From positions 4,124 through 68,123 of the IMG/VR virus record IMGVR_UViG_3300025110_000002: 64,000 bases of DNA; one strand, given 5' to 3'. The position numbers and the translations under genes are program-made. Below the pieces are notes generated by a model that worked only from the letters and a program-made list of their open reading frames with translations, searched no databases and had not been told where the DNA came from. The first letter of the stretch is position 1. Each line of letters starts with the position of its first letter. Below are positions 1-64,000 of this stretch, one piece after another. This DNA comes from a virus.

Positions 1-955
1 TTAAAGACTTTTGTATTAAAATAAGCCCTCCACCTGAAGTAGAATCAAAAATATCAACTGCAGGAGCATTCATTGGAGCTTTTTTAGCTACAGAAATATC
101 ATCCTCATTAAAGTCTCTTGTTTGTATTTGTATAATTCCCGATGCATTTTTTATTTTATATTCTATTTTAGTGTCAGACCCAGGGTTGTTTAAAGAATAT
201 TTTTTAAATTTTGGTATATAAATACGCCTAGGAGGATTTATATTATCCGTCCAAAACAGCATATCATCTATAATATTTATACCTGTTATTTTATTTTGTT
301 TTGAAAAGTTTAAAACGCCACCTGACGAGTAAGTAACACTTGGCGAAATATTTCCTAATTTTGGAAAATCATAAATAATATTTTTAAATACCATTTCATC
401 ATTTTCTTTTCTTAAAACAGTATTTTTAGGAATAGAAATATTAACGTATGGGTCAGAAAGAGTTATATCAACATTATTATTAATTAATACCTCCTCATCA
501 TTTACAATTGGTAAATTATTAACACCTAAAATTTGTATTAAATTTGCTTCATTATAATTTTTAATCACTAATTCGGAATCAACATTACCGCTAAGAACTA
601 TTTGATCTAAAGTTGTTATTACACTATTTTTAGCATCATGTATTACAATACTTACAGCTTCTGTTTTTTCATCATATTCATAAATACAATCTGCTGTATC
701 AGAAGAAACAAACCAATATATTTTATTTTTTAAAGGATAGGCAATACTACCTATTGTAACAGCATTATCAGTACTAGAAAATAAAGTAGATAATCTTTCA
801 TTACCTAATAAATTTTCAATAGCCCCTACATCAGACGCCTCAGATGATGCTATTTTGATGTTTAAAGCATCAATATATTCACCATTTGGTACAAGCCTAT
901 CATCGAGGTCTTTATTCATTCTCCCCGATGTAAAAGTACGCTTAAGTTCCGCCAT
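1..955 (-). CDS. Tail stabilization (muzzle, P22 gp10-like) protein, 3' end beyond the window edge
   Basis: Not in the ORF track because it runs off the edge. ATG at 955 overlaps the upstream TAA. It reads MAELKRTFTSGRMNKDLDDRLVPNGEYIDALNI...ITGINIIDDMLFWTDN, an N-terminus typical of crAss-like tail stabilization proteins, and follows the ring protein genes. Confidence 0.75.
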   Translation of the reverse strand, partial: MAELKRTFTSGRMNKDLDDRLVPNGEYIDALNIKIASSEASDVGAIENLLGNERLSTLFSSTDNAVTIGSIAYPLKNKIYWFVSSDTADCIYEYDEKTEAVSIVIHDAKNSVITTLDQIVLSGNVDSELVIKNYNEANLIQILGVNNLPIVNDEEVLINNNVDITLSDPYVNISIPKNTVLRKENDEMVFKNIIYDFPKLGNISPSVTYSSGGVLNFSKQNKITGINIIDDMLFWTDNINPPRRIYIPKFKKYSLNNPGSDTKIEYKIKNASGIIQIQTRDFNEDDISVAKKAPMNAPAVDIFDSTSGGGLILIQKSL

Positions 956-26416: not shown

Positions 26417-26673
26417 AATACGGCAATAACGTCTTGTTCTTTAATTACAAAAAACAACTCATCATTAAATTCGATCCCATATCCGGCATGTTTATCATAA
26501 TATATCATGTCTTTACCAGATAGCCCTTCTACTAAATTGCCTACAGATACAACAGAGGCCTTTTGGTATCTTACATCGTTTTGATGTTGCTCAGCTAAAA
26601 TTAAACCGCTTTTGTTGGGTTTTGGTTTTTCTTTTAGCTTTTTAATTATTATGTATCTATTTACAGCTCTCAT
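26413..26673 (-). CDS. groES: Co-chaperonin GroES
   Basis: Start MRAVNRYIII overlaps the GroEL stop (ATGA). Contains KSGLILA, VVSVG and IKEQDVIAVL. Confidence 0.88.
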   Translation of the reverse strand: MRAVNRYIIIKKLKEKPKPNKSGLILAEQHQNDVRYQKASVVSVGNLVEGLSGKDMIYYDKHAGYGIEFNDELFFVIKEQDVIAVL

Positions 26674-32453: not shown

Positions 32454-32555
32454 CTGCTTCAAAAAATTTTATTAGATATAATGAGGTGAAATGTAACGCC
32501 TAACGTATTGGGTACCAGCCCGTTACAGAAAACCCTTTTTCCGAACCCACCCCCC

Positions 32556-32580
32556 TAAGTTACTGATTGTCAACTAGTTG
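32556..32580. promoter_or_regulatory. Back-to-back IHF-consensus sites
   Basis: AATCAGTAACTTA (-) is a full WATCARNNNNTTR match and TGTCAACTAGTTG (+) has one mismatch. Both lie in the divergent intergenic region. Confidence 0.4.
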
Positions 32581-32720
32581 GTTTTACCTTTTCCGTACTT
32601 GTTTTGTACACACTAAATACGAAACTAATCGGATAATATAAATAAAAAACCTCCCGTTCGTTTTAGCTTTTGTGTATAGCAAATGTACACACCAAATACG
32701 AATCCTTTCGGATAATAAAT

Positions 32721-33486
32721 ATGAATGATAAAAATATAATTATGTATAATATAAATAAACACACAATAAAAAATATAATAAGTCAAGAGTTATTAATGTT
32801 ACATTCTAAAGATTTTAATTATCACGGTACGAAAACTCAAATAAAAAACATGAAAGATATTTATGAATATATTTTATGTACACACTAAATACGAGTTGAT
32901 TTGGATAATATATATGAACTTAAAATAATAATACTATGACTATTAAAATTTATGACCAAGACACTAATAATTATATAGATGAAATATATCTAACTAATAT
33001 TAATAATAAAAAAGAGATAGAACAAAATATAGAAGAATACTATAATTTAAATAAAATATATTATTCAATAGTTTAAGACCTCGACCAATACCTAACTAAT
33101 AAAATATAATAATAAACAAAATACATACTTTTATGGATATTAAATTAATAAGAAGAATAGAAAGACAAAATAAAAACACAAATAAGAAAATGACAATGTA
33201 TAGTCTTGGACAAAAGAGTGTTACACGAATAAGTTTTAGTAAAAATGCCTTATGGAATTATTTAGATTATACTAAAGAATATTATGCACATACAAGATTA
33301 CATACCTAATACGACTAAAATTGGATAATATAATTGAATATAAATAATAATAAAATGACAAAACTACATAAAATAATAAACAGTTACAAAAATAATAATA
33401 TGAACAAAATTAGATTAAGTTATAATTTAAAGAACTATTATAATTTAACTGAAGAAGAAAGACTAACTATAGTAAAAAATATTTAA
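32721..33486 (+). CDS. Cluster of four tiny early ORFs (32721-32888, 32936-33076, 33133-33309, 33355-33486)
   Basis: Manually translated 43-58 aa ORFs lying between the promoter-like repeats. Confidence 0.5.
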
Positions 33487-33487
33487 A

Positions 33488-33697
33488 ATGACCAATAGAG
33501 AAATAATTAGAAAAAATTTAATGTTAACAAACAATATTATGGGCAAAAGATTTAGAATAGAATTAGGAATATTTCTACACGAATATTCAAAGAATTTATG
33601 GGACTGTGATGGTTTTGATTTATTACCTGAACAGAATAAAGAATGGATACGAAATAGTGTCTTAAACGAAATGGATAAACAATTAAGATTAAAATAA
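33488..33697 (+). CDS. Early hypothetical protein
   Basis: 69-aa ORF in a co-directional array. Confidence 0.6.
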   Translation: MTNREIIRKNLMLTNNIMGKRFRIELGIFLHEYSKNLWDCDGFDLLPEQNKEWIRNSVLNEMDKQLRLK

Positions 33698-33703
33698 TAT
33701 AAA

Positions 33704-33901
33704 ATGAGCAACGCATATAATATAGGCAGAATTTTAGGACTAGTAAGAACTTTAGAAACAGACTTACATTTAATAGAAAACCTTTGTATAAATGAAGAAT
33801 CTATGGAATATAGAGAAAAGACTGGAAAAAGATTAGTTAAAGAAGCTAATGAAAGACTAAGTGAAATATATAAAATCGCGGACGAATTAGAATTAATTTA
33901 A
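33704..33901 (+). CDS. Early hypothetical protein
   Basis: 65-aa ORF. Confidence 0.6.
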   Translation: MSNAYNIGRILGLVRTLETDLHLIENLCINEESMEYREKTGKRLVKEANERLSEIYKIADELELI

Positions 33902-34219
33902 ATGCTATACACAATGGAAAATAATAATAAATATGAGGGGTGGACAAATTATGCCACATGGAGAATAAACCTAGAATTATTAGGAGATTATGATTGGGCT
34001 AATGAAGTTTTAGAAAGTGATAATGAAAGCTGGAGACCAGATGTTGACTATTTAAAAGATTTAGTTGAAAACTGGGTTTTTGAGAATCATACAGGAAGTT
34101 TAGGCTTGGTTGAAGATTATGCGAGAGCTTTTGTTGATCAAGTAAATTACTATGAAATATTAGAACATATTTTAGAAGATATAGACAATGAATTAAAAGC
34201 AAGAGGAGATGAAAGTTGA
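33902..34219 (+). CDS. Early acidic protein with YEGWTNYATW motif
   Basis: A Y.GWTNY.TW N-terminal motif is common in phage early regions. The start could be 33914. Confidence 0.65.
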   Translation: MLYTMENNNKYEGWTNYATWRINLELLGDYDWANEVLESDNESWRPDVDYLKDLVENWVFENHTGSLGLVEDYARAFVDQVNYYEILEHILEDIDNELKARGDES

Positions 34220-34448
34220 TAATAATAATTATGCAGGTGGAAAAACTGTAAAAGAAATGGAAGAACAACTAAAAAGATGTTTGGACTTTGAAGAAAAATA
34301 TGGAAAATCTATAAGAACCACTTCTTGGATCAAATGGTGCACGAGTGAAAAATATAGAAAAAGATCTCAGGATTTTAATCAATCAATTGCCAGAACAATG
34401 AGGAGTATGAATCCTGTTAAACTATATAATATAATAAATAACAAATAA
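34209..34448 (+). CDS. Early hypothetical protein
   Basis: 79-aa ORF. Confidence 0.6.
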   Translation: MKVDNNNYAGGKTVKEMEEQLKRCLDFEEKYGKSIRTTSWIKWCTSEKYRKRSQDFNQSIARTMRSMNPVKLYNIINNK

Positions 34449-34459
34449 AATTAAATAAA

Positions 34460-34816
34460 ATGGAAAAAACTAAACAAAGATTAAGAGACACTTATCCTCA
34501 AGTAGAAAAATTAGAGGATTATTTAAATATAGAAATTACCGACAATGACTGGACAAATAAAGACTTAGAAATCACTGAATGGAATACAGCTGATGGATAT
34601 GAAATATATGTAATGAGTGAAGACTCTTCACAATTAAATTGGGAAAATGATGTTTATTATTATAAACCTGACACGGAAACAGTACTGGAACGTATTGAAC
34701 AAGCAAGTTTAGATTTTGGTGAAGGTGCTAGAATTTTAATATATGATATTGAAGAGCATTTACCTGAAGACGAAGTTGAAGATTGGATAAATAGTAAAAC
34801 AGAAGAAGATGAGTAA
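34460..34816 (+). CDS. Very acidic early protein
   Basis: 118 aa, strongly D/E-rich. Confidence 0.65.
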   Translation: MEKTKQRLRDTYPQVEKLEDYLNIEITDNDWTNKDLEITEWNTADGYEIYVMSEDSSQLNWENDVYYYKPDTETVLERIEQASLDFGEGARILIYDIEEHLPEDEVEDWINSKTEEDE

Positions 34817-34986
34817 AACAAAAGAACTTAGAGTTTTAATTGATAAAATTAAACTACAAACTAAAACAGAATTAGATAGAATTGTTCACTGGGAAGTTAC
34901 AGACTGGTCAGAAGATAAAGAAAGTTATATAAAAAAAATTATCTCTGAAGAATTATTCCATGAATATAATAAAGAAAATAAATAAT

Positions 34987-35130
34987 ATGAAAATGCTATA
35001 CACACACAGAAAATATTCAAATTGCTGTGACGCTTGGCCTTTAAGTGAGGTTGACGAATACAACACGGGGAGATGTTCTGCGTGTTTAGAAGGAGCAGTG
35101 TTTATTGATGAACACATCAAATACGAATAA
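34987..35130 (+). CDS. Small Zn-ribbon-like protein
   Basis: Manually translated 47 aa with SNCC...GRCSAC. Confidence 0.5.
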   Translation: MKMLYTHRKYSNCCDAWPLSEVDEYNTGRCSACLEGAVFIDEHIKYE

Positions 35131-35150
35131 AACTGGATAATATAATTGAA

Positions 35151-35420
35151 ATGAAAACATTTGATAGATATAAAATAAATTTAAAACAAGTAGGTAACGA
35201 CATATATTCATATGATACTCACGTTGCTGAAATAATTGGGGATTACCTTTACAAACTTAAATGGAATGTAGGAAGTATGACATCAAGCCCAACTACAAGC
35301 AAGCATATTAATTATGCAGCAAATGAGCTTGGTTTAACAGTAATTGAAAACGGCCAATGGAAAGATGAATACTGGCCAACTTTAAGTTCTGACGAAAAAT
35401 TAAAATTTAGAATAAAATAA
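35151..35420 (+). CDS. Early hypothetical protein
   Basis: IYSYDTHVA...SPTTSKHIN, immediately after repeat copy 5. Confidence 0.65.
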   Translation: MKTFDRYKINLKQVGNDIYSYDTHVAEIIGDYLYKLKWNVGSMTSSPTTSKHINYAANELGLTVIENGQWKDEYWPTLSSDEKLKFRIK

Positions 35421-36512: not shown

Positions 36513-36584
<72 letters not shown>

Positions 36585-36599
36585 CTAAATATATAAATT

Positions 36600-38479: not shown

Positions 38480-39090
38480 ATAGAAATTTAGCATATTTAA
38501 ACAGCCGTCGACTAATTTATAGACGAGGACCCTTAACTGACACCCCATCTGAAAAATTTATTTGGGGTGACTTTTATAAGGATGGAACTTATCAATGTTA
38601 TGAGTTGTTTAAAAGTAAAGCCAAAATAACATCGTATAAATCATTTAAATGGCATATCTTAGTGCTGTGGTATTTAAATGCTAATATGAATTTGAAAGAA
38701 ATTACTGAATTAGCTATGTTTCTTGCAAATAAAGAAAATGGGTTTGTAAGCATAACTTTATCTCCCACAACAATACAATACATTGTAAATGAGGTTGATA
38801 AAATAGATCTTGAAAGGCCACCTAAAAATAAATTAAGAAAAATAATTTTTAAAGATCGATCAGGATTAGATAAATTAGAAAAATTAAGAATTGTAGGAAA
38901 ATTAATTGGTAAAAAGAAGAAAGCAGAGCCCAATGATATATATGAAGCTATGATGTATATTAACCATGCTGAACAAAAAATTACTATCAATTCAATAGCT
39001 AAAGTATTAAGTGTATCAACTAGAACAATATATAGGAATATAACTAAGGAAATTAGAGAAGAAAAAATATTGTTAAATGAAGAAATATAA
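38473..39090 (+). CDS. HTH DNA-binding protein (regulator or replication initiator)
   Basis: C-terminal HTH ITINSIAKVLSVSTRTIYRNI. First gene of the replication block. Confidence 0.7.
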   Translation: MSYRNLAYLNSRRLIYRRGPLTDTPSEKFIWGDFYKDGTYQCYELFKSKAKITSYKSFKWHILVLWYLNANMNLKEITELAMFLANKENGFVSITLSPTTIQYIVNEVDKIDLERPPKNKLRKIIFKDRSGLDKLEKLRIVGKLIGKKKKAEPNDIYEAMMYINHAEQKITINSIAKVLSVSTRTIYRNITKEIREEKILLNEEI

Positions 39091-39820
39091 TATACAAAAC
39101 TATATAAGACTAAAAAACGAATTATATGTTTATGAAAATTCCTCTAAAAAACAAAATGAAAGAGAGATACTAATTATATCAAATATAAAAATGGTAGAAA
39201 ATATAGCAAGAAAATTTTCAACATCACAGCAAGCTTCCGGCGTTTTAGATATTACAGATCTAATACAAGAGGGAAGTATAGGATTAATACAAGCTGTTGA
39301 TAAAATTGATTGGGAAAGAATAGACACATCTGATGACCCAAAAAGATCACTTAATAGTTTTTTAAGTAAAAGAATTAAAGGGGCTATACGGCGCGCTATA
39401 GATATAAATAGAGGTAATATACGTATACCTGAACATAAATTAAATGATATAAGAAAAAATTCAGCTAAAGAACAAGCAATGGTGCAAGCATTTTTTAATA
39501 GTATTTTTTTAAGTATTGATAATCCTTCACCAGATACTAGTATGGTATATGAAATACCAGATAAAGCAAAAGAGTATAATTTAGATATTTTAAATAAATA
39601 TTTATTATCTATAATGGAAACACATCTAAATATAAAAGAATATGATGTGTTAAGAATGAGCTATGGTTTAGACTGTGATAAAATGACCGCTAAAGAAATA
39701 GCCGCTAAATTAAATGTAAAAGGGATAGCCTCTTATGTAAGAATATCCCAAATAAAAAGAGAGGCAATAAATAAATTAATAGAAACCGTAGATCCAGCGC
39801 AAGTAGCTGATTTACTTTAA
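39077..39820 (+). CDS. Sigma70-family RNA polymerase sigma factor
   Basis: Region 2 DLIQEGSIGLIQAVDK...RIKGAIRRAI..IRIP and region 4 VLRMSYGL...EIA...RISQIKREAINKL. Confidence 0.92.
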   Translation: MKKYNIQNYIRLKNELYVYENSSKKQNEREILIISNIKMVENIARKFSTSQQASGVLDITDLIQEGSIGLIQAVDKIDWERIDTSDDPKRSLNSFLSKRIKGAIRRAIDINRGNIRIPEHKLNDIRKNSAKEQAMVQAFFNSIFLSIDNPSPDTSMVYEIPDKAKEYNLDILNKYLLSIMETHLNIKEYDVLRMSYGLDCDKMTAKEIAAKLNVKGIASYVRISQIKREAINKLIETVDPAQVADLL

Positions 39821-51560: not shown

Positions 51561-54500
51561 TTAATATTTTTTAATTATTCGATCTACTTTTCTTAAAAGT
51601 TTATCTATATCGGGAGCCGCTTTTGGCTCTTTTATATTTAAGTCCCATTCGCTATATCCTAAAGCTAGAAAAATTGATTGCCATAGTTCTGTTTCGGGTT
51701 TCATAGCAGTATTTAAATGATCCATTTTTAATATTACTCTATCAAGAGGTAAATTGGTGCCAGCAGATACAATTTGTCCAAAAGCTAAAAATCCTGGATT
51801 TTCTAAACTAAATCCTTCTGTATATACTTTTTCTTTGCTTTGTTTATAAGTAAAAGTTCTACTAGCAGCTAATAATTTTCTTAATTTTGAATCTATAGGA
51901 GGAGAAAGTGAAACAGACTTTAACGCAACTCTAGTATAGTCTGATCTTTTTGCTTTAGACTGTCTAATTCCTTCTAATACCATATTTTTTATAACTGTTG
52001 CAACAGCCCCATATACCCCTGTACCCCTAACAAAACTATCAATACTACCGTTAAGTAATTTAGAATACCTTCTTTTTTCATCATCTTCTGTTGTATCATC
52101 AAACATCAATGCAAATAATGCAGATTGTAACGAGTTAAATATAATATTCTGTATTACGCTATAATATACAATTTTACTAATATTTGCCTTCCAATCTCCG
52201 CGTTTATTAATTAAATCTAAAAATGCTTTTTTAGTTAATCTAGTATACTGCATAGGGGTGTTAGCGAAGGCTAATATAAGGCGCCCTAAACTACCAGCTT
52301 GTTGCATTGAAATACGGTCTGGACGTGCAGACTGTTGTGTCTCTTCAGCAATTTCCATAAAGTCTGTAAAAGCTTTTTCTTGTGCTTCTTTTTGAGACAT
52401 ACCTTGTTTTACATAAGTATCTATCCTATTTCTATAAAATGATGCACCACCAGAAGCAATTGCAAATGAATCCGCAATTTGTGTAGGTGTAAAACCAAAT
52501 TGAAGTATTGCACTCAACATTGCTCTTACTTTATTTTTTGATGTTTTAGCCGAGTTAGCAATTTCATCTGCATTGACATCTATTTGTAATCCAGAACGTC
52601 TTTGTTTTAAAAAGTCTGAATTAAATAAAAATGTAAAGTCTTTTACAAATTGTGGGAAATTAGCTAATGCCATTCCAGCTTTTAATGGATTATTATCACT
52701 CCAATTTATAAAGTTCACAGCTGATATAGTCTGTAATAAAGCTGATCTAGTATTAAAGAACATAATTGTTCCTACAGAATCATTAGTCCAATCTAAAAAT
52801 ATTTTTTCATTTTGACTAGCACTTGATCTTCTATTCCTACCAGTTTTCATCCTAGTAATAATATCTTCTAACGCTACAACATATCCATTACCATATAAAG
52901 CTCTTAATTTATCTTTATTTTGATCACTAAATACTGTGTCTATATTTTCTTTCCATTCTTCTAAAAATTCTGCTCTTCTTACATCATTTACATAACCAAC
53001 AAGATCTGTTGTTATATCTCCACTATTCCAATTTTCAGTAGGTGATGGATAACCTTCAGGATTTAAAACCATTAATCTTTCTGCAAAAGCTTTTAATAAA
53101 GGATCATTTCTAACAATTTTTAAATTTTCATTTATTTCTTTTTTAAGGATACCTTCTATTTCCATGCCTTGTTTAGTCCACATGTATATTCTTATAGAGT
53201 CTTGGTTTGTAAACCCAGATTCATTTACTTTGGTTAATCCTATAGGAACATCTTTTGATGCCTCTTTTTTAAGAAGCGACCACTCCCTAAGCGAATTTTC
53301 TTTTTCTCTTTGCCAAGCTTGTATACCTTTAGAGAAAGGTCTTATTAAGTTATCTTCGTACCACTGTCTTTGTTGGTCCCCTACTTTTCCTTTCCCAAGT
53401 GTTACATATAATAATCCTAAAAAGTCTTCTGCAGAATATGGAACAAAAAATTTGTTTCTTCCTTTAGATTGGCCTACAAGTTTAGCTTTAACAGGAGAAA
53501 ACTTTTGATACCAAGGTGTACCAGTAGTACCTTGTATTAATTCGTTAAATTGTCTACTTAATCCTTTTGACGCTTTAGAAGTAAGTTTTTCTTTTAATAT
53601 TTCTGCATCAATTTTATTTTCTATATTAAATCTAGAAGGCTTTACTTTTTTTGGGTCAAAAACAGACATTTCATTTCTAAGAGCAGTATATATTAAATTG
53701 TTTTCTCTATTCTTACTAGTCCCACTCCCACTCGATTTTAAATAAAAATCCATTTTCAATTCAATATCAAATCTATCAGCCTTTTCAATATTTAAAATAT
53801 TTCGACCTATAAAATAAGTTCCATAGCCATCTCCGATATGTATATAAAAATTATCTTTATTATTATAATGATTTTCAAGGCTTATAACAGTAATTTTTAT
53901 ACCTTTCCCAAACGCTTTTTTATAAAATTCTTGTTTTTCTAACTCTTCTAAAGTTTCTCTTTTTATAGTTCCTTTTAATGGAAATTGAGTTTGTGGCCCT
54001 TTAAAATCTGGATTAATTTTTTCTTCCATTTCATTAATAAAATTCAATGCTTCACGAACAGCTGGCATGTTCCTTTCAAAAAAAGCTTCAAATAATCCAA
54101 CATTTGGCAAATCTTTTCTATCAACTATTTTTTTGTTACGTATAAAGTCTATTCTAGGGTCTTTAAGATCTGTGCCAGAAAAATAAACCCGAGAACTACC
54201 ACCCCCCATTCTAGCTGTTATACTTTTTTTAGCTTCTAAATAAAGAGGTTTTTCTTTCCCTTCTTGTTTAAATTGTAAATCTGGACTGTTATTATCATAT
54301 CCAGCACCTCCGCCTAATACAGGTAACCCGTATTCTCGCATTTGTTTCCCGAGCACTTCTTCAAAAATTAATCCACCAAAAGTTTCTCCTTTAATAATAC
54401 CATCTTCCCATAATTTAATAGTAAAATCTTTTACAAAATCAAGCTGATCTTCAGCGAATCCTTTAGGTTTATAGTTATTAAAACGATCAGAAATTATTTC

Positions 54501-57500
54501 GTCTTCTTTTAATATTTTTGCAAATTCAAAAGCGATATTTGAAAATTCTGATGAGGTTAATCCTTTCGATGCTTTAGATCTATATCCTCTGTCTATTTTT
54601 CTTGCAATTTCCTGTATATAAGATTCTGCAACGCCGATACCCGATAATTCTTGAATTTCTCTAAATCTATTCATGATAGATTCATTTTTCAAAATTTCAT
54701 TGGTAGCATCAAACGCAAGTTCAACTCCTATCTCTTCTGTAAGTGCTATTTTACGGTTTCCTAATGCAGATTTTTTATATGCAGTTTTATCTGTAAAATA
54801 TTCAACCCATTCTTTTTCACTAATTTTTCTTTTCTTAAATAAAGGTTTACCTTGCCCTAAAGTTTTTACATCTCTTCCTTTTTCAACGGGCAATTTTTCT
54901 CTCATTTGAACACCATCTTTATCAAGTAAAGGTTCTTTAAAAGCTTGAAATCTTTTATTAATAGTAGACAATGGTAAATTGTCATATATAGCTTCAAAAT
55001 TTTCAGTTAAAAAATTTTCATAGCCACCAGTATCATTAATAAACTTTACTATTTCGGGTTTTAACTTTGTTCTAAAAGTTTTAGTTAAAGCCGCATTGAA
55101 AGCTTTAACACTTATATTAGGTAATTTTGTACCAAAAGCCAATTCTACAGCCTCCAAAACTTTATCTGATAACTCAGGATCAACACCTAATTTACTAGCT
55201 AAATCATCTTTTTTAATTTCTACTGTTTTTTCTTCTAATTCAAATGCACTTTCTGTAGCTGTGTCTGGTGTTCCTTTAAGAGTATCAACATCTAACATAA
55301 ACTCTTTACCTAATAATTTTTGAGCTTGTTCAATAGCTCTTCTTCCTAAATATTTATTTATATAACCAGCCAGCGGAGCTCCTTGTGCTTTTGCTTTAGT
55401 ATAATCCATTATTAATCCTAACAAACCTCTTTCGTCAAAAGTAATTGCATCTTTTAATTCATTAAAATCAAAATTTGGTGTGTTTTTATAATTATTTGTA
55501 ATCTTATTTAAAATTGGATCAAATAATTCTATAATTTCCATTGCCCCTTCAGCTCCTTTTTCATTATATATATCTGTAACCTTTTGGGAATCTACTTCTC
55601 TTTTACTTGCTTTGGATATTATCCCATCTATTGCCTGAGATTCATTTAAAATTTCATCACTAATTTCAATACCTTCTTGCATTGCTTTTATAACAGCTCC
55701 ACTTGTTTTCCCCTTTCTTACAGCATGACTATAATCTTTTATAAAATTAAAAACATCAGCTCCGTCTTCAAATCTAATTTTTTTCCACCCTATATCTTGT
55801 AAAATTCTTCTTAAAATATCACCTAGTTTAGCTAAAAACCCTTCATTAGGTTTTTTTATAAGAGGATTATTATATATATCTGAAATAGCATTAAATAATT
55901 CTTCTGCTCTTGCTTGTTCAGTATAATTAGGGTCATTTTGATATTGTGTAAGAATTTGATTTAAAATAGACCCTTCTTTAAATAAATCTGGATCTATTTT
56001 CATTAAATGATCTTTTAACAAAGTAGATAATTCAACAACCGCTGTAGTTTTTCCGTTGTATAATGTTTTATATAAACCATTATGCAATATTTCATGGCCC
56101 GCTACAGTAACATTCCCTGTTTGTCCAGCTACTTCCATATTCATTACCATAACCGCACTGCCATCTGCTTTAGGATCAGATACCCTACCTGAATCGGTTT
56201 CTTGAGCATCTTTAATTCCAAATTTTTTGGCTGTTTCAACAAAATCTTTACTATTCTTTACTTCTATAATTTTTAATTTTTGATTTAAAGCACCTGCAAA
56301 TCTTCTGCCTTTAAGAACTTGATCTGTAAGTTCAGCTGTAACATAAATTTTTAATTTTTCTTGTCTAATTTCTTCTAATCTAGCTTCATTTCTTTTAGCA
56401 AAGGTTTTATCAACATTTTTATTTTCATTAATTATTTTAGATTCTTCTATTAATAAATTAATTAATTTTTGTTTAGCTCCACCAACAACCGAAGGAGGGA
56501 CTTTCATATTAGCATTATCAACATCACTTATAGTGGACAGTTGTTTTTCACCTTGTTCTTTGGTAATTTCACCTTTAATTACTGAAGCTTTTATATTTTT
56601 CTTTAAGTCTTTTAATATATATGATTGAGAATTAACATCGCCAAAAGATGCAACTCTATTAGCTAAAGCTGTTGTTTCTTTTATAGTATAAGAAGCAGCC
56701 TTAACACTAAAAGGTAAAAATCCACCAACTATACCTCCCTGTGCTCCAGCTTGTTTTATTTCATCTAAATCAATATATTTTCCTGAATCTCCAATAGAAA
56801 ATCCTTTAGATATTTGAGAAGTTAAAGTTTGAAAACTTTCTGTTAAATATTCAACCATATAACCCCTAGCCACAGCTTTACTAGACCCTTTTAATCCTCC
56901 TTGTTTTACAAATCTTCTAATACCATCTTTTACAATAGATCTAATAAGTGCTTTACCGGGTTTTGTTATCATTGTTCCTACAATTGTAGTCGCCCCTGTA
57001 AATTCTAAAGCAGATTGTATTGTGGCAGACGCCGCAGCAATTCCGCCATCTCCTTCCCCAGCTTCTAAATAATTTAAAAACCCTTCTTCTGAAAACTCTT
57101 CTCCGTTAGCTTCCATTTTTGCGATAATGGTATCAAAATATGCATTACCGTATTCTTGCGCAAAAATACCAGTACCGAAAGTAAGTACAGCTATAGGAAG
57201 CTGGATTGCTTGTTCTCCAACTAATAAAGCTAAATCTCCCCAACTCTCCGGCATTAATCCATCTAGTTTTGCTTTTTGAAAAGCTTTTAAATCTTGTTCT
57301 ATTTCTTTTAAATTAAGATATTTATTTAAAATTTTTTCTTTTTGTTTTATTATTTGAATTTTTGCTTGTTTTACAGTAACTGGCCTAGGTGGTCTTGTAT
57401 CATAAGTTTGAGTACCAGGTGTGCTAGACAATGTATACGCTACTTCGGCATCATCTTTATCTTTAATTGAATCATTTAGTCTTTTAAGTTCGCTTGCATC

Positions 57501-58364
57501 AAATGAAATGTCAGTTCTTCTTAAAGAGGCATTTACTTGTTTAAATCCTTTTTGCATGGCTTCCCATAGTTTGGAATCATCAGTTAAACCAAGTTCAGAT
57601 CTTTTTGCATCAACCCATTGTTGTCGTTGTATTTCTGATAATCTGTTAAATTTATTATCATAAGATTTAATTATAGCATCTTTAAAAGCGTCTATTCTTT
57701 TATTATATGTTCTATTGTTAGAAACAGTATCTAAATACAATTTTGTTGCGTAATTATTTAATTTAATATTAGCAGCATTTATTTGATCAATATCAGTTAA
57801 ATCTGTATTTTCTTTAAGTTTATTTTTAAAATTTTCAATTTTAGGCTCCAAAACCTTTTGAACATCTTTTAATAAATGATTTTGAAGATAACGATCCCCT
57901 TTAATCATAGATAGTAAAGAACTATTTAAAGATTCACTTATATCTTGTGTTTCTTTAAACACAGAAAAATCTAAAGTATTTACGAGTTTATCAGCGTAGT
58001 TAAGAGCACTTTCTTCGTCCATCTGAGGGGCATAAGGGTCTATACCCGCATCAGTTAACATTTTTAAGCGTAGCTCGCTGTTTTTATCTTTTGTAGACAG
58101 ATAAGTTTGGAATTGTTCTTCATATTTTGGAGGAGTGAATACCAAGGTGCCATTTCCCGAATTGGAAGCCATATCGGGCGCTTGTTTCCCTCCCGCAGCC
58201 GCACCCTGAGCATTGGGGTTTATCTTTACTGGTCCTTCATACAATACAGCATCTGGATGATCTAAAAGAAATTGAGATTTGCTTTTAGGTCCAACATTAT
58301 ATTTTTTACCATCAGGATCAATATAAATTTCATTTTTTACTTTTTGGTCCAATGTTGCTTCCAT
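51561..58364 (-). CDS. Large polyvalent ejection/cargo protein (zincin + sigma region-2-like + PD-(D/E)xK nuclease-like + C-terminal helical domain)
   Basis: 2267 aa with HEILH at aa 757-761 and a downstream EE, a sigma2-like segment at about aa 940-1016, E...PD...EAK, and three SKASK linkers. It is the largest gene of the ejection-protein trio. Confidence 0.7.
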   Translation of the reverse strand: MEATLDQKVKNEIYIDPDGKKYNVGPKSKSQFLLDHPDAVLYEGPVKINPNAQGAAAGGKQAPDMASNSGNGTLVFTPPKYEEQFQTYLSTKDKNSELRLKMLTDAGIDPYAPQMDEESALNYADKLVNTLDFSVFKETQDISESLNSSLLSMIKGDRYLQNHLLKDVQKVLEPKIENFKNKLKENTDLTDIDQINAANIKLNNYATKLYLDTVSNNRTYNKRIDAFKDAIIKSYDNKFNRLSEIQRQQWVDAKRSELGLTDDSKLWEAMQKGFKQVNASLRRTDISFDASELKRLNDSIKDKDDAEVAYTLSSTPGTQTYDTRPPRPVTVKQAKIQIIKQKEKILNKYLNLKEIEQDLKAFQKAKLDGLMPESWGDLALLVGEQAIQLPIAVLTFGTGIFAQEYGNAYFDTIIAKMEANGEEFSEEGFLNYLEAGEGDGGIAAASATIQSALEFTGATTIVGTMITKPGKALIRSIVKDGIRRFVKQGGLKGSSKAVARGYMVEYLTESFQTLTSQISKGFSIGDSGKYIDLDEIKQAGAQGGIVGGFLPFSVKAASYTIKETTALANRVASFGDVNSQSYILKDLKKNIKASVIKGEITKEQGEKQLSTISDVDNANMKVPPSVVGGAKQKLINLLIEESKIINENKNVDKTFAKRNEARLEEIRQEKLKIYVTAELTDQVLKGRRFAGALNQKLKIIEVKNSKDFVETAKKFGIKDAQETDSGRVSDPKADGSAVMVMNMEVAGQTGNVTVAGHEILHNGLYKTLYNGKTTAVVELSTLLKDHLMKIDPDLFKEGSILNQILTQYQNDPNYTEQARAEELFNAISDIYNNPLIKKPNEGFLAKLGDILRRILQDIGWKKIRFEDGADVFNFIKDYSHAVRKGKTSGAVIKAMQEGIEISDEILNESQAIDGIISKASKREVDSQKVTDIYNEKGAEGAMEIIELFDPILNKITNNYKNTPNFDFNELKDAITFDERGLLGLIMDYTKAKAQGAPLAGYINKYLGRRAIEQAQKLLGKEFMLDVDTLKGTPDTATESAFELEEKTVEIKKDDLASKLGVDPELSDKVLEAVELAFGTKLPNISVKAFNAALTKTFRTKLKPEIVKFINDTGGYENFLTENFEAIYDNLPLSTINKRFQAFKEPLLDKDGVQMREKLPVEKGRDVKTLGQGKPLFKKRKISEKEWVEYFTDKTAYKKSALGNRKIALTEEIGVELAFDATNEILKNESIMNRFREIQELSGIGVAESYIQEIARKIDRGYRSKASKGLTSSEFSNIAFEFAKILKEDEIISDRFNNYKPKGFAEDQLDFVKDFTIKLWEDGIIKGETFGGLIFEEVLGKQMREYGLPVLGGGAGYDNNSPDLQFKQEGKEKPLYLEAKKSITARMGGGSSRVYFSGTDLKDPRIDFIRNKKIVDRKDLPNVGLFEAFFERNMPAVREALNFINEMEEKINPDFKGPQTQFPLKGTIKRETLEELEKQEFYKKAFGKGIKITVISLENHYNNKDNFYIHIGDGYGTYFIGRNILNIEKADRFDIELKMDFYLKSSGSGTSKNRENNLIYTALRNEMSVFDPKKVKPSRFNIENKIDAEILKEKLTSKASKGLSRQFNELIQGTTGTPWYQKFSPVKAKLVGQSKGRNKFFVPYSAEDFLGLLYVTLGKGKVGDQQRQWYEDNLIRPFSKGIQAWQREKENSLREWSLLKKEASKDVPIGLTKVNESGFTNQDSIRIYMWTKQGMEIEGILKKEINENLKIVRNDPLLKAFAERLMVLNPEGYPSPTENWNSGDITTDLVGYVNDVRRAEFLEEWKENIDTVFSDQNKDKLRALYGNGYVVALEDIITRMKTGRNRRSSASQNEKIFLDWTNDSVGTIMFFNTRSALLQTISAVNFINWSDNNPLKAGMALANFPQFVKDFTFLFNSDFLKQRRSGLQIDVNADEIANSAKTSKNKVRAMLSAILQFGFTPTQIADSFAIASGGASFYRNRIDTYVKQGMSQKEAQEKAFTDFMEIAEETQQSARPDRISMQQAGSLGRLILAFANTPMQYTRLTKKAFLDLINKRGDWKANISKIVYYSVIQNIIFNSLQSALFALMFDDTTEDDEKRRYSKLLNGSIDSFVRGTGVYGAVATVIKNMVLEGIRQSKAKRSDYTRVALKSVSLSPPIDSKLRKLLAASRTFTYKQSKEKVYTEGFSLENPGFLAFGQIVSAGTNLPLDRVILKMDHLNTAMKPETELWQSIFLALGYSEWDLNIKEPKAAPDIDKLLRKVDRIIKKY

Positions 58365-58375
58365 TTATATAAATT

Positions 58376-59923
58376 TTAAATACTGTAATCTTCATTTACT
58401 TCACCATCTTCGTCTTTGACTATATTGTTTAAGATACTTTGCATTTCGCTATTATCAAGACGCATAGTTGATCTTTGCTTTAAGTTATAAACATTTAGTA
58501 ATGCATCTACATCATATATAGGATAATCGTCTATAAAGAATAAAGGGTCAGATGGGAATCTTTTTCTATATGCCTCTTCTGCTTGTTTTTGATTCATATT
58601 TAAATCTTTCATAAAAGCTTTTGTTATTAAAGATTTTTTAAGTGATGTAGTTTGAAATTTTGAAGTAGAAAAAATAGGTTGTTTTCGTATTGCCTCTATA
58701 ACATTATTCATAGCTTCTTCTTGCCTATCTATACGATCTTCTTCTTTAATTATTTCTCCAGCTGCATTAACTATTTCCCCGGCTTCGTTTTTATACTCTT
58801 TTTCTGTGTTTGCTAAAGCAGATTGCAAAGAGCTGTGGAAATTTTGCATTAATTCTATAGCGTCTTCTTTAACCTGAGCCCTATCTGAATCGGTTTGAGT
58901 TGGAGGAGTAACCTTTCTTTGATAAAATCCTTCATAATGTTCTTTAGCACTTTTTCTTATGTTTTCATGAACAAATTCTTTCAATGTTTCCAATATAAGA
59001 ATATCGCCGTCTCCATCTTCTTCATCAACAATACTGCCATCTTGAAGATCCCCAATTAAATATTGTTTAAATTCTAGAGAACTTAATTCATCACCTTCTT
59101 CAGATGCTAATTTTTGTAACAAAATTCCTGCTTCATCTCCTTTTAAATATCCTAAATGATCAACTGCAAGGGTAGCATATTGTGTATCTGTTAGCTTTAA
59201 TGCTTCTATTCCTTTTTGAACTTCAAAATCTAATCCTTTACTGCTATCCCCTTTAAGAGCTAATTTTTTAGCAGATTCATTTATTGATTTTAATAAATCT
59301 AAATATACTTTATGATCTTGTTCTATTAATCCAAAAGCATTAGGTAAATCTTTTATATCAATAGCAATTTGTTCTTCTTCCCCTTCTACTCCAGACATGT
59401 TAATATTAAATATAGCTTGGTTTTCAAATAATTCAAATTCACCTGCCATACGCATTTTATTTAGTTTTATAGATTTTGCATCATTTAAATTACTAAGCAT
59501 ATCGCTTTGCTCTAAAAAATCTTCTCCACTGGCTTTATATTGGTCGGCCCAATATTTTAATTCAGCAATTTTTTCTTTTTCTTCATTAACCAACATTGTT
59601 TTTTGTATATCAGATATTTCATCGCTCATTGCTATATTATAAACATTCATTTTAATAGCCGCAGCTTTTTCTGTTAAATATCTCATGCCTTGTGGTGGGA
59701 CTCCTTTAAAATCAGGATTTTGATACTGACTAATAAGTTTAGATGCAAAAGCTTCTCTTTCTTTCATAGCTTTAGCATAAGCTTGTCCCTCAAGAGCTCT
59801 TTGTTTTTTATATTCAAGAACTTTTTGGTCCATTGTATCTATTGCAGGTTGCACTGCCCCTGCTAAATCTAAGGGTCTTCCGCCCCCTTGTGCCATTCCT
59901 AATAGTCTTGCATTTATTGCCAT
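58376..59923 (-). CDS. Putative internal virion/ejection protein
   Basis: 515-aa helical acidic protein in the middle of the ejection trio. Confidence 0.55.
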   Translation of the reverse strand: MAINARLLGMAQGGGRPLDLAGAVQPAIDTMDQKVLEYKKQRALEGQAYAKAMKEREAFASKLISQYQNPDFKGVPPQGMRYLTEKAAAIKMNVYNIAMSDEISDIQKTMLVNEEKEKIAELKYWADQYKASGEDFLEQSDMLSNLNDAKSIKLNKMRMAGEFELFENQAIFNINMSGVEGEEEQIAIDIKDLPNAFGLIEQDHKVYLDLLKSINESAKKLALKGDSSKGLDFEVQKGIEALKLTDTQYATLAVDHLGYLKGDEAGILLQKLASEEGDELSSLEFKQYLIGDLQDGSIVDEEDGDGDILILETLKEFVHENIRKSAKEHYEGFYQRKVTPPTQTDSDRAQVKEDAIELMQNFHSSLQSALANTEKEYKNEAGEIVNAAGEIIKEEDRIDRQEEAMNNVIEAIRKQPIFSTSKFQTTSLKKSLITKAFMKDLNMNQKQAEEAYRKRFPSDPLFFIDDYPIYDVDALLNVYNLKQRSTMRLDNSEMQSILNNIVKDEDGEVNEDYSI

Positions 59924-60980: not shown

Positions 60981-63900
60981 TTATACGTACCATTCCCAAT
61001 AATTTGTTGTTTCTACTGCCGAGTTATCTCCATTCATTAATTCAGTTCTAGTTAGCCTAATTTTTGTTTTATATTCATTATATACCCAAAAATTTCCGCT
61101 ACCCTTTGTAAATGATGAACTTGATAATACTCTTGCACCAGTAGCTTTAATTTTTATAGGAATGCCATCAGAATCACATATCATTCCATATCCAGCAGTA
61201 CCTGGCCCAAAAGGCCAATCTCTATTATAATCAACACTATTTGGATTAGTTCCTACTATTGCAATGTTATCTGCTTTAGGACCCGCTAAAATTTTAATTG
61301 GCTTATAATTTGTTCCAAAACCGGTTGGTGCACTACCAATCCAGGATCTTTGCCCATTCGCCGTTGTTATATAATAGCCTGAGTTTAAAGAATTTTGGGA
61401 GAACCCTTCTCTATGATATACCCCTCCAATCAGCCCAGTAGTATTGGTAGGGTCTATGTGGGGTCGGTATAATGCGGGTGCATGTAAATTTAATCTAGGA
61501 AGAGCAGTCTCCGCGTCCCAACTAACAGGTGCTGTAGATGCTAAAGCTTTTGAATGAGAATCTGCAGTATTATAACCCATTATAGTATTAAAATGATAAA
61601 ACTTTTGATGGTAAGCCTTAGAATATATACCAGGAAGCACTACATTTATTTTATATCCTCTTTTCCCCCTATATGTTTCTAATGTATAATCAGCATACCC
61701 ATTTTTATCAAAATAAACTATATTTTCAATTATTCCTGGTGTTGTACCGCTTGGAGATGATTTTATAGTTACTTTATCTGAAATAAACAACTCAGATGCA
61801 TTATTAATACCTGCTTCACTAGATAATTGATTTTTAACAATATTATAATTTGTTAAAGAAGATGTGCTTGGAATTAGCCAAGGGCCTTTCCAATTAGTTT
61901 GCCATGGGGTATTTTTTAAATCATCAGGATAATCTTCTACCACCCATTCACCAGTAATTTTTACTAAAGTATCTTTATATAAAGGGCTATATAGCGGAAA
62001 ACTACAATGTGCCACATCATTATAAATAGCAGGCCAAGCAAACCCTTGATATTCACTATTTTGTCTAATACCAATTGGATCTGTTACAATGCCACTATTA
62101 TTTTTAACTACAACTTGACAATCTTTTACTTTAGTTATTATTCCTTCTTTTGCTTGATATAAACTTAAGTTTCCTTTTTGTATAAAATAAAAGTTACCTT
62201 TTGGAAAATATAATACACCAGGCTTAGTTGTCCCTTGTTCTTGGAAATATAATTTACTATTATCTGTTAAATTTTTATCTGTAGCCCAAATTTTTGGGAA
62301 AACAGCATCTGTTTCGCTGTTTGTTGTATATTGTTTAGTATTTTCGTTAGCATTGCCAGGCTGATGAGTACAATCAACATCAAATTTACCTGAAATTAAA
62401 TGGTACTTATCTACAAGGGTTGTACCATCCCATTTTTTATCTGAATGTAAAAGTCCCTCTACTTTAACTTCTAATTTAGCTGAAGTCGCGTCACTTTGTA
62501 AATTAACTAATATATTTATTGTTAATTCATGGGTTGATGTATCATACGAAAATTTACTGGTAATTGATTTAGTTGATGCCGGGGTTTCAAATAAATTATA
62601 ACTCCCAGCTGAAGGCTGCGCTAATTTTGTGCCTCCTAATACTTCGGTGTATTTAAATTTATTAGCATCAGTAAGTTCGCTAACATCTATAACCCCTATA
62701 TCTTTTATTAATCCAATAGGAATTACAGCTTGATATAAATAATTTGTATTATGTGGTAAATTAGTTGCGCTAGCTATAACCTTATGGCCAGATTGCCCAG
62801 GGGGAGTACTTATTAATTGATTTGTTAAATTAGCGGGGATGCTAACCATAGAACCATTTATATCATCAAGCTTACCTTCAAAAATTACTTGTAAACTTAC
62901 AAAGGGGGCACTTGTGGCTGGCTTTGTTTCTGTTAATGTTGTACTATTTTTAGGGCGAATTGTAAAAGTAGCATTTGCTGATGGCTGGGAGAATGGTCTT
63001 GAATTAAAACCAATTTCTAAATTATCATTTACTTTTCTAAGCAGCAATTCCCCTCCATCAGTATAAGTATCTATAACACTATTATTACTTGCATCTAAAA
63101 ATTCAAAATCGTCTGCATCGATTGAAGATTTAAATAAATATCCTGAAGATGGTGTTAATGTCCAATAATATTCAGAAGCAGCTGGAGTTGATTTTAATCC
63201 AGCACCCCCGGTTGTAGCATATGTAGTTGTTGCTGATGTATAATTACCTGAGCCACTCCCATCTTTTGAATTATTATCATAATCAAATGTAGTTGTAACA
63301 TTTTTGCCCACAAGAGCGCTTATATCTAAAGTATAAGTTTCATTTTCAATTAAATTATCAATTTTTAAATCACCCGAAACAGTAACTTTATGCGTATTAC
63401 TTCCTGTTCCAAATGTTAAAGAGTTTAAGCTTGTAGATGCACTATTTTGGTTAGAACCAAAATTAATATTATTATCACTTGGTTGTACACCTGCAGTATA
63501 AGTTCCAGATGGAAGAACTAATTCTATTGAAAAACTTCTTTTGTGTTTTGTATTAATATAGTCAGATATATCAAATCTATCAAGTATTGAAGAAGAATAA
63601 AACACAATAAGTGAAGCTGTTTTTCTAGATTTTATAGGTCTTAAAATTGTAACAGTATTACCTCCAAACCCAGAATCAATTTTTGATCCTTTTAAACTTT
63701 TAAATACTATAGTATAAGTTTCAGCTGTATTTCCTGCGGGAAAATCTAAAATTATTTCTTTTTTACCAGTATTATCTAATTTTATATTAATATCAGAAAT
63801 TGCACTTGAACTATTACTAAATAAAACATTAACCTCCGCATCTGGTTGTCCTGAAATTGTCAATGGTCTCTGTACTTGAGTATTTGGCAAAGCAGTAATA

Positions 63901-64000
63901 TCAATTTTTTTAGAATATATAAGTTTATCAAGTACTACTATTTTTGTTGGTATTATATTAACTGCGTAGTCTAATACACTATTTATATTATTAATAAATA
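60981..64000 (-). CDS. Large beta-rich tail/structural protein, 5' end beyond the window
   Basis: The frame of the 969-aa track ORF stays open from 63890 to the window edge (FINNINSVLDYAVN...ITALPN). S/T/N-rich. Confidence 0.6.
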   Translation of the reverse strand, partial: FINNINSVLDYAVNIIPTKIVVLDKLIYSKKIDITALPNTQVQRPLTISGQPDAEVNVLFSNSSSAISDINIKLDNTGKKEIILDFPAGNTAETYTIVFKSLKGSKIDSGFGGNTVTILRPIKSRKTASLIVFYSSSILDRFDISDYINTKHKRSFSIELVLPSGTYTAGVQPSDNNINFGSNQNSASTSLNSLTFGTGSNTHKVTVSGDLKIDNLIENETYTLDISALVGKNVTTTFDYDNNSKDGSGSGNYTSATTTYATTGGAGLKSTPAASEYYWTLTPSSGYLFKSSIDADDFEFLDASNNSVIDTYTDGGELLLRKVNDNLEIGFNSRPFSQPSANATFTIRPKNSTTLTETKPATSAPFVSLQVIFEGKLDDINGSMVSIPANLTNQLISTPPGQSGHKVIASATNLPHNTNYLYQAVIPIGLIKDIGVIDVSELTDANKFKYTEVLGGTKLAQPSAGSYNLFETPASTKSITSKFSYDTSTHELTINILVNLQSDATSAKLEVKVEGLLHSDKKWDGTTLVDKYHLISGKFDVDCTHQPGNANENTKQYTTNSETDAVFPKIWATDKNLTDNSKLYFQEQGTTKPGVLYFPKGNFYFIQKGNLSLYQAKEGIITKVKDCQVVVKNNSGIVTDPIGIRQNSEYQGFAWPAIYNDVAHCSFPLYSPLYKDTLVKITGEWVVEDYPDDLKNTPWQTNWKGPWLIPSTSSLTNYNIVKNQLSSEAGINNASELFISDKVTIKSSPSGTTPGIIENIVYFDKNGYADYTLETYRGKRGYKINVVLPGIYSKAYHQKFYHFNTIMGYNTADSHSKALASTAPVSWDAETALPRLNLHAPALYRPHIDPTNTTGLIGGVYHREGFSQNSLNSGYYITTANGQRSWIGSAPTGFGTNYKPIKILAGPKADNIAIVGTNPNSVDYNRDWPFGPGTAGYGMICDSDGIPIKIKATGARVLSSSSFTKGSGNFWVYNEYKTKIRLTRTELMNGDNSAVETTNYWEWYV

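Follow-up and report, generated by a model that had tools for sequence, protein, structure and literature searches.

We analyzed a 64,000-nt stretch of DNA (henceforth the window) that comprises bases 4124-68123 of the 68,123-bp IMG/VR record IMGVR_UViG_3300025110_000002, the genome of an uncultured marine podophage, and found that P0001, a giant protein encoded at the end of its late operon, contains an embedded domain that matches domain 2 of the sigma-70 factors (sigma2). Here, we show the sigma2 fold of this domain, the layout of the protein around it, the position of its gene, and the conservation of its family. The explanation that we favor, if tentatively, is that P0001 is a multidomain protein of the cargo or polyvalent type and that its sigma2 domain, once injected, would give the phage a hold on the RNA polymerase of its host. 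Two features are central to what follows, given here in window coordinates:

51561..58364, minus strand: P0001, 2267 aa, ~250 kDa, the last large gene of the late operon (open reading frame and translation)
55311..55589, minus strand: sigma-70 domain-2-like module of P0001, aa 926-1018, regions 1.2-2.4 (PDB profile matches, AlphaFold2 model, Foldseek, VIA)

A Sigma2 Fold Embedded in P0001

AlphaFold2 models were made without templates. For the sigma2-like domain alone, the model has a pLDDT (predicted local distance difference test) of 88.8 and a pTM (predicted template modeling score) of 0.79, and a model of aa 910-1270, with a pLDDT of 72.7, consists of two domains joined by a disordered linker. 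When the single-domain model was searched against PDB with Foldseek, 49 of the 50 listed rows were sigma factors, with a probability of up to 0.98, and these rows have TMq values of 0.5-0.6 and a root-mean-square deviation (rmsd) of ~3 Å. In a VIA-align comparison with 48,161 representative chains, the matches at ranks 1-30 were all sigma domain 2 or a sigma-derived scaffold, which we take to be derived from Taq sigma A. The top match is SigB (8x6g_H; Z 8.6, rmsd 3.3 Å, 93 residues aligned), and the others include pro-sigmaK (Z 8.1), RpoS (7.7), sigma32 (7.6), and chain F of the T4 late complex 7d7d (7.5) as well as sigma28, SigA, and extracytoplasmic function (ECF) sigma factors, with groups 1 to 4 represented. 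The first unrelated chain appears at rank 31 with a Z of 5.5, and a VIA run on the independent two-domain model gave the same picture.

Profile searches at the sequence level point to the same family. A 12-sequence profile of aa 910-1270 searched against PDB returned SigE as the second match (E = 0.12) and pro-sigmaK as the third (E = 0.21). We also built an alignment of the embedded domain alone from 39 sequences found on viral contigs (referred to as A3), and the profile made from it, searched against 177,635 PDB sequences, returned SigE first (8b3z_A, E = 0.011) and pro-sigmaK second (8vjl_B, E = 0.02), both aligned in register over regions 2.1-2.3. At E values of 10 or less, five of the 14 rows of this search are sigma factors, RpoS and two FliA chains among them. 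The phage also encodes a free sigma factor, described below, and an hhalign comparison of A3 with 15 relatives of that protein gave a sole match (P = 0.0025, at a probability of only 11.9%) that places domain positions 22-95 in register on sigma positions 30-107, which correspond to region 2. A two-domain alignment (A1) compared with the same sigma family by hhalign gave only a spurious 26-column match and was set aside.

Because the structural list consists almost exclusively of sigma factors and is joined by these sequence hits, we conclude that aa 926-1018 are very likely a divergent but genuine homolog of sigma2. A preliminary description of this DNA, made from the sequence alone, had proposed a sigma region 2-like domain at this place, and the model, the Foldseek and VIA lists, and the SigE match bear it out, including the structural match to sigma2 on which the proposal hinged. 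The peptide quoted there, AMEII...EQAQK, does exist as aa 941-1016 of P0001 on the minus strand, but it maps to window positions 55317-55544 rather than 55317-55547.

The region was found by BLASTP in 86 of the 120 other listed homologs of P0001, and a hidden Markov model (HMM) of the domain detects it in 87 of 121 family members. At an E value of 0.001 or less it matches 325 representative clusters, and the best 150 of these matches are mostly proteins of ~1,000-3,400 aa, the shorter ones probably being fragments. As in true sigma factors, region 2.3-2.4 is the best conserved part of the domain (mean column identity of 0.72 vs. 0.60-0.65), and the positions of a G..G motif (region 2.2-like) and an L..Y.N motif (region 2.3-like) are nearly invariant. 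In the HMMER alignment, with sigma70 residue numbers for regions 2.3 and 2.4 as we take them to be, the positions aligned with F419, F427, and Y430 are occupied by Y, L, and Y, which are likewise nearly invariant.

A number of results weigh against the assignment of the domain to sigma2 or against an active role for it in transcription. The lowest E value among the listed Foldseek rows is 0.57, and VIA Z values of 8-9 lie in the range that the tool itself calls common for helical models. The Pfam model Sigma70_r2 (PF04542) does not match the whole of P0001 at an E value of 0.1 or less or the excised segment at an E value of 10 or less, so the comparison with Sigma70_r2 profiles that the preliminary description had suggested came back empty, and a six-frame PF04542 scan of the genome identified only the true sigma factor at window positions 39077-39820 and not the embedded domain. 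Similarly, an HMM of region 2 of the phage's own sigma factor gave no signal for the embedded domain when searched against the 121 family proteins; its best hit overlaps the domain in five of 87 proteins, and reversed sequences score similarly. The W433-W434 pair of region 2.3 is replaced by K-Y/F in the same HMMER alignment and numbering, the domain HMM detects no copy in 34 of the 121 family members checked, and there is no sign of sigma region 4, since Sigma70_r4 has no match on P0001 and no sigma4 is among the PDB matches of the aa 910-1270 profile.

Some of these observations would fit a domain that is a relic, or a helical bundle that has been reused away from RNA polymerase, with single-stranded or phage DNA as a conceivable ligand or with packing or spacing inside the cargo protein as a conceivable role. 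Such an origin would be in keeping with the marginal sequence similarity to sigma factors, with the loss of the tryptophan pair and the change of several region 2.2 residues in that alignment, and with the family members that have no detectable copy, which make the domain dispensable for the core function of the family. However, the structural match is specific to sigma2 topology rather than to helical bundles in general, and both the near invariance of the G..G and L..Y.N positions and the 325 cluster representatives argue against a relic, which we consider unlikely.

By analogy with known sigma factors, we give the embedded domain an even chance of binding RNA polymerase. A predicted complex between the domain, represented by A3, and residues 200-360 of RpoC from Flavobacterium johnsoniae scored 0.29 against a mark of 0.32 and speaks neither for nor against binding. 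In this prediction, F. johnsoniae is a stand-in host and the RpoC range was picked from what we take to be the Escherichia coli numbering.

Domain Layout and Family of P0001

From the N- to the C-terminus, P0001 is composed of an N-terminal region with a possible hydrophobic helix, a zincin motif, the sigma2 domain, an acidic linker, a helical domain, a putative effector slot, and a C-terminal module. All of these are encoded on the minus strand, and those not yet listed are as follows:

57177..57233, minus strand: hydrophobic stretch, aa 378-396 (mean hydropathy of 1.65 over a 19-residue Kyte-Doolittle window)
55899..56096, minus strand: zincin-type motif HEILH (aa 757-761) and downstream E822 (motif only, with no Pfam or PDB match)
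55203..55310, minus strand: acidic linker, aa 1019-1054, predicted to be disordered (pLDDT <50 in the two-domain AlphaFold2 model)
54597..55202, minus strand: domain 2, a helical domain that includes a small beta element, aa 1055-1256 (AlphaFold2 pLDDT ~80-90)
53577..54554, minus strand: variable slot, aa 1271-1596 (other inserts here in family members; no recognized domain in P0001)
51627..53576, minus strand: conserved C-terminal module, aa 1597-2246 (68% identical to P0010, many invariant polar residues)

Judged from its hydropathy, aa 378-396 is a possible membrane-inserting helix; a second, weaker hydrophobic segment lies at aa 2070-2088 (Kyte-Doolittle mean 1.44). In 22 full-length homologs, the residues H757, E758, H761, and E822 of the zincin-type motif are nearly invariant. 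The linker that directly follows the sigma2-like domain carries a strongly conserved family motif, F.LDVTEAKGV.DT, in which D1025 and E1028 are nearly invariant, and from its sequence this motif is a candidate processing (cleavage) site or interaction motif. Domain 2 usually comes next after the sigma2-like module in family members; it has no match to sigma region 3 or 4 in Pfam or PDB and no usable match in the Atlas. Among 18 homologs analyzed with Pfam, the inserts between domain 2 and the C-terminal module include DUF6934 in five and a Zeta_toxin plus AAA_33 kinase in one. Within the corresponding slot of P0001, a candidate PD-(D/E)xK motif was noted by eye near aa 1350-1375.

The N-terminal two-thirds of P0001 is far more variable than the 650-aa C-terminal module. 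The named Atlas clusters nearest to this module carry either LPD39 (28% of members) or LPD38 (63%), and the presence of these polyvalent-protein domains in the neighbors is a lead only. Because of the nearly invariant HExxH...E residues, the variable inserts, and the LPD38/LPD39 neighbors, P0001 resembles proteins of the polyvalent or cargo type.

At an E value of 0.001 or less, the protein has 693 homologs, all of them environmental and many encoded on contigs of 58-71 kb. A search of viral contigs with a single protein turned up no relative, and an alignment-based search turned up 218. We identified no relative among 50,697 phage records and none in any cultured phage, a point against the virion association discussed below. 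Likewise, no match for P0001 was obtained in PHROGs, PADLOC, or PDB (the last searched with phmmer and a full-length profile), and a Pfam scan of the protein gave no match outside the sigma question either and no LPD family.

Position of P0001 in the Late Operon

The record has a G+C content of 31.6% and a CheckV completeness of 100%, and the 68-kb genome is complete. On a circularized reading, its 127-bp direct terminal repeat falls inside a 2658-aa muzzle-like open reading frame (ORF), and because the repeat cuts through this ORF it represents an assembled circle and not the physical ends of the genome. The 4.1 kb of the record outside the window contains only the continuation of the same structural ORF. 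The terminase is 62% identical to that of an uncultured 60.8-kb podovirus, 46% identical to those of the Flavobacterium "elemo" podophages, and 37% identical to that of the Cellulophaga Pervagoviridae (phi38:1). The source is an uncultured marine podophage with a virion module like that of Pervagoviridae and crassviruses, and its host is probably a member of the Bacteroidetes. The late genes that bear on the position of P0001 are the following:

60981..64000, minus strand: muzzle-like ORF, C-terminal part (2658 aa in all, re-entering across the 127-bp terminal repeat)
1..955, minus strand: muzzle-like ORF, N-terminal part, with the start of the ORF at window position 955 (PHROG 14478 "virion structural protein", E = 5.5e-32)
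58376..59923, minus strand: protein of 515 aa encoded upstream of P0001, with phi38:1 gp100 (549 aa) and crAss001 gp46 (534 aa, cargo protein 2) as its positional counterparts

The 2658-aa ORF matches the Pfam model crAss_MUZ_C above the cut-off (E = 5.3e-8) and is homologous to gp097 of phi38:1 (E = 4e-52); the Pervagoviridae-like virion module therefore contains a crassvirus-type muzzle domain. It is followed in the late order by proteins of 107 aa, 231 aa, and 515 aa and then by P0001, after which three small ORFs and a convergent terminator-like hairpin, recognized by eye, mark the end of the operon. The phi38:1 genome has gp097, gp098 (132 aa), gp099 (200 aa), gp100 (549 aa), and gp101 (1691 aa) in this order, all annotated as "structural protein" by similarity to phi18:1, the proteomics of which reportedly underlies the annotation. 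In crAss001, the order is gp44 (the muzzle), gp45, gp46 (534 aa), and gp47 (2341 aa), and mass spectrometry of virions detected gp45, gp46, and gp47, which are described as cargo that is expelled into the host cell. The uncultured relative MW202828.1 has a gene for a 3859-aa protein at the position of P0001.

Based on this analogy, P0001 is probably virion cargo. The case has its weak side, in that no similarity of P0001 to phi38:1 gp098-gp101 or crAss001 gp45-gp50 was detected, and because its counterparts are unlike it in sequence the packaging of P0001 is a positional argument. The 515-aa protein similarly shares synteny only, with no sequence similarity to phi38:1 gp100 or crAss001 gp46, the A3 HMM identified no sigma2-like domain in the 3859-aa protein of MW202828.1 or in phi38:1 gp101, and none of the positional counterparts of P0001 has this domain; between the two late modules, sequence homology is confined to the muzzle gene. 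The designation of P0001 as a virion ejection protein in the preliminary description thus agrees with the synteny to phi38:1 gp097-gp101 and the crAss001 cargo genes and finds no echo in sequence beyond the muzzle gene.

Because virion presence is deduced from synteny, P0001 could in principle stay in the producing cell and act there late in infection, for instance by tying up RNA polymerase so that early and middle transcription stop, and the location of its gene at the end of the late operon would suit such a role. However, the genes at the same position carry structural annotations in phi38:1 and have products that were detected in virions in crAss001, and the giant size, the zincin motif, and the variable effector inserts are as the main text of PMC5512222 describes for injected polyvalent proteins. 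We regard a P0001 that is not packaged as very unlikely.

Several other genes outside the early region were noted. A GroEL and a GroES-like protein are encoded at window positions 26670-28220 and 11092-11685 on the minus strand (PHROG 5725 and 13932), and such a pair is also present in phi38:1 and MW202828.1. Two further giant late proteins are probably receptor-binding fibers: a 2381-aa protein (12185-19330, minus strand) that matches DUF7483 over three stretches and Laminin_G_3 over six and SPRY weakly, and a 1624-aa protein (19317-24191, minus strand) with phage fiber repeats and a Peptidase_S74 chaperone domain.

RNA Polymerase, Free Sigma Factor, and Early Promoter Motif

The genome encodes no recognizable RNA polymerase. 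PF00623 has no match in it, and the same model matches in 14 of 14 control genomes; PF00940 has no match either, but it also matches in none of the control genomes and its silence is therefore uninformative. Searches with crAss001 gp47, gp49, and gp50 by tblastn gave no match in the genome, and a D.D.D motif is found nowhere in P0001. The preliminary description had seen no polymerase motif in the window, which these searches support, and the part of the genome that it had not covered, where a virion RNA polymerase might have been encoded, is taken up by the muzzle-like ORF.

These results also bear on the idea that P0001 is itself an unrecognized virion RNA polymerase, one that would have its catalytic part in the C-terminal module and bring along a sigma-like domain of its own. 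P0001 does occupy the same slot as crAss001 gp47, which is annotated as a "putative RNA-polymerase subunit", and the strong conservation of its C-terminal 650 aa, with 68% identity to P0010 and many invariant polar residues, would fit the idea. But in addition to the missing D.D.D motif, P0001 has no polymerase match in Pfam or PDB and none to crAss001 gp47, gp49, or gp50, and because the phage keeps a factor of the sigma-70 family it would use the polymerase of the host. We consider this idea highly improbable.

The free sigma factor and the promoter-like motif that lies upstream of it are encoded as follows:

39077..39820, plus strand: free phage sigma factor, 247 aa, regions 2 and 4 (Pfam Sigma70_r2, 9.3e-8; Sigma70_r4, 1.2e-5; PHROG 351)
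32594..35157, plus strand: promoter-like motif array with five strong copies of TTTACA-N5-AAATACGA-N8-GGATAATATA-N-ATG
32615-32638, 32694-32717, 32887-32910, 33307-33330, and 35119-35142, plus strand: motif cores within this early array

The array stands at the head of the rightward early region. With up to three mismatches allowed, the motif core has nine matches in the window vs. 1.77 expected, and none of 100 shuffles reached nine. An alignment of 21 sites from five genomes gives the consensus ttTACAaa.taAAyACGA-N8-GGATAATATA.ATGaA. The motif is present in 17 of the 18 related near-complete genomes: four of five related genomes contain 5-7 copies and each of another 13 genomes with a completeness of 91% or more contains 1-9, whereas a control pattern has zero or one match in related genomes. 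The copies are almost always on one strand and, where coordinates were listed, mostly 2-8 kb upstream of the sigma gene. The motif does not fit the strict Bacteroidetes promoter consensus, which we take to be TTTG-N17-21-TAnnTTTG, and this pattern is not enriched in the window, with two matches vs. 4.4 expected. The early repeat had been described in advance as unlike host promoters, and it has proved to be both real and distinct from the strict Bacteroidetes pattern. Judging from these sequences, the early promoters look phage specific, and together with a free sigma gene that lies behind the array this raises the question of which factor fires first.

Three other elements of the early region were recorded. 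A second conserved element, TGCTATACAC, occurs at window positions 33903, 34994, 36387, and 38003 on the plus strand and 32672 on the minus strand, with another copy at 25276 (plus strand). It is also found beside early promoters in two related genomes (L087 and L089) and, going by sequence, could be a second promoter class or an operator; its count of seven vs. 4.35 expected is not significant alone. A G+C-rich island of ~120 nt (window positions 32480-32600), located in the AT-rich divergent control region just upstream of the first motif copy, has no Rfam match at the gathering threshold. Finally, a gene for tRNA-Met (anticodon CAT) lies within the early gene region at 36513-36585 on the plus strand.

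Free Sigma Factor and Embedded Domain across Related Genomes

To some extent, comparative data speak to which of the two proteins reads the early motif. All 18 related near-complete genomes with the embedded domain contain a match to the free sigma factor at 54-73% identity, and the embedded domain therefore does not replace a sigma factor. In region 2.3-2.4, compared for both proteins across the same 17 genomes, the mean column identity is 0.88 for the free sigma factor and 0.72 for the embedded domain, in which region 2.3 varies (YINKYL, YIQGQL, YVNKFA) while GGATAATA is invariant. Given a free-sigma match in every genome with the domain and the better conserved DNA-reading region of the free sigma factor, the motif needs no second reader. 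Each of these points tells against a promoter-reading role for the embedded domain, and the free sigma factor is the simpler reader of the early motif.

They are also what would be expected if the free sigma factor were the sole reader and the embedded sigma2 bound host RNA polymerase as a competitor of host sigma factors, causing shut-off, or as a tether at the ejection channel, and the lack of a sigma4 partner for the embedded domain fits as well. This division of labor leaves unexplained how the sigma gene is first transcribed. The motif array precedes the gene, a promoter of the host type is not conspicuous, and something must nevertheless transcribe it at the start. A pure competitor for the clamp helices would, moreover, hinder the phage's own sigma factor too. 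In addition, the free-sigma match is split by stop codons in two of the 18 genomes (G004:C1:8520-9255 and G016:C1:65743-66500), and these genomes keep five and seven motif copies, respectively; sequencing errors could account for the stops, or else the motif may not depend on the free sigma factor. We therefore see a sole reader in the free sigma factor as a serious minority possibility, on the unlikely side.

Covariation of the motif with either protein gives no clear answer. The upstream element of the motif exists in two variants: AAACACGA (the C variant) in G001-G004, G011, and G017-G019, and AAATACGA (the T variant) in the window, G012-G014, G016, G020, and G022. This split does not match the similarity of the free sigma factors, as the window sigma factor is closest to those of C-variant genomes and yet the window carries the T variant. 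Five columns of the free sigma factor and two of the embedded domain fully separate the AAATACGA and AAACACGA groups, counts that include no phylogenetic correction, and overall the T/C variant tracks neither protein clearly. In genomes with a giant protein in which no copy of the domain is detected, the motif does not exceed control counts, but these genomes are 59-83% complete and their sigma factors are 28-51% identical, which confounds the comparison. G005 has the domain and a sigma factor at 59% identity and no motif, and the stretch of this genome that was examined for a repeat of its own turned out to be fiber-like coding sequence.

On balance, a role for the embedded domain as an injected factor that initiates transcription at the early motif is doubtful. 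The most specific form of that proposal, in which a capsid-delivered sigma2 seizes the host core RNA polymerase, fires the TTTACA-N5-AAyACGA-N8-GGATAATATA promoters including the first transcription of the free sigma factor, and so takes the place that the injected RNA polymerase has in crassviruses, is likewise an unlikely one. It would account for the start of transcription in a phage with promoters that call for phage-type recognition. The overall interpretation of the preliminary description, that an injected sigma module redirects host polymerase to the early repeat, is partly supported by our results, namely as to the sigma2 fold, the complete genome with no recognizable RNA polymerase, and the early repeat.

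A Possible Hold on the Host Polymerase

In known sigma factors, sigma2 docks on the beta-prime clamp helices of RNA polymerase. Under the reading that we favor, P0001 would be made late, loaded into the capsid, and ejected together with the DNA or before it, as the position of its gene suggests by analogy with the fate of the proteins encoded there in crAss001 and phi38:1-type phages, and its own zincin peptidase, if the motif is a guide, may cut it into modules. The sigma2 module may then dock on the beta-prime clamp helices of the host enzyme in the manner of known sigma factors, and docking would supply a pre-made hold on that enzyme for the first round of transcription. We favor a hold of this kind because the genome encodes no recognizable polymerase and because promoters that look phage specific precede its sigma gene.

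The domain shares its helical topology with sigma-70 factors, among which SigB, pro-sigmaK, RpoS, sigma32, 7d7d chain F, and sigma28 are the best structures and SigE and SigK the closest sequence matches. Unlike those factors, it is embedded in a 2267-aa late protein, falls below curated thresholds, and lacks both region 4 and the tryptophan pair. T4 gp55 is presumably a precedent for a factor with sigma2 only.

P0001 is placed like crassvirus cargo, in the part of the late operon that follows the muzzle gene and closes the operon, and is similar in size (2267 aa vs. 2341 aa for gp47); phi14:2 gp66 is, as we take it, another of the crassvirus cargo or RNA-polymerase-associated proteins. It differs from crassvirus cargo in that neither sequence similarity to it nor a polymerase motif is detectable, and the free sigma factor of the phage implies use of the host polymerase. 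The likeness to phi38:1 includes a terminase at 37% identity, a muzzle-like ORF homologous to gp097, and matching number and sizes of the downstream genes, but gp101 has neither a sigma2-like domain nor an HExxH motif and no sigma factor is annotated in phi38:1.

Polyvalent proteins are giant injected phage proteins in which, according to the main text of PMC5512222 (Iyer et al. 2017), zincin peptidases outnumber all other domains and are invariably fused to N4-like virion RNA polymerases. P0001 resembles the proteins described there in being giant and multidomain, in its HExxH...E motif and swappable inserts, and in its LPD38/LPD39 neighbors, and it would follow the same logic as polyvalent proteins and the N4 virion RNA polymerase, namely to deliver a jump-start of transcription. 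It differs in that the transcription module would be a sigma domain and not a polymerase or a modifying enzyme, and it has no match to a named LPD. The word "sigma" occurs zero times in the main text of PMC5512222, the supplements of which could list the domain under an LPD name. More generally, we found no mention of sigma domains in virion, cargo, or polyvalent proteins in the literature that we searched, and a sigma2 domain in a giant phage protein of the cargo type appears to be undescribed in it.

In the known cases, phages start early transcription with an injected polymerase, as do N4, crassviruses, and phiKZ, with an injected modifier of RNA polymerase, as T4 does with Alt, or from host-type promoters. 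If our favored explanation is correct, a sigma domain in ejected cargo would be a fourth way to jump-start early transcription and, should it also fire the early promoters, the first sigma-type initiation factor delivered by a virion, and it would explain how abundant marine phages, probably of Bacteroidetes, start without a polymerase or host-like early promoters. The protein family concerned is large, as the 693 homologs and the 325 representative domain clusters indicate. Even if the mechanism differs, the contexts in which the sigma2 fold is found are extended, and the domain is a small, expressible fragment with a clear binding test.

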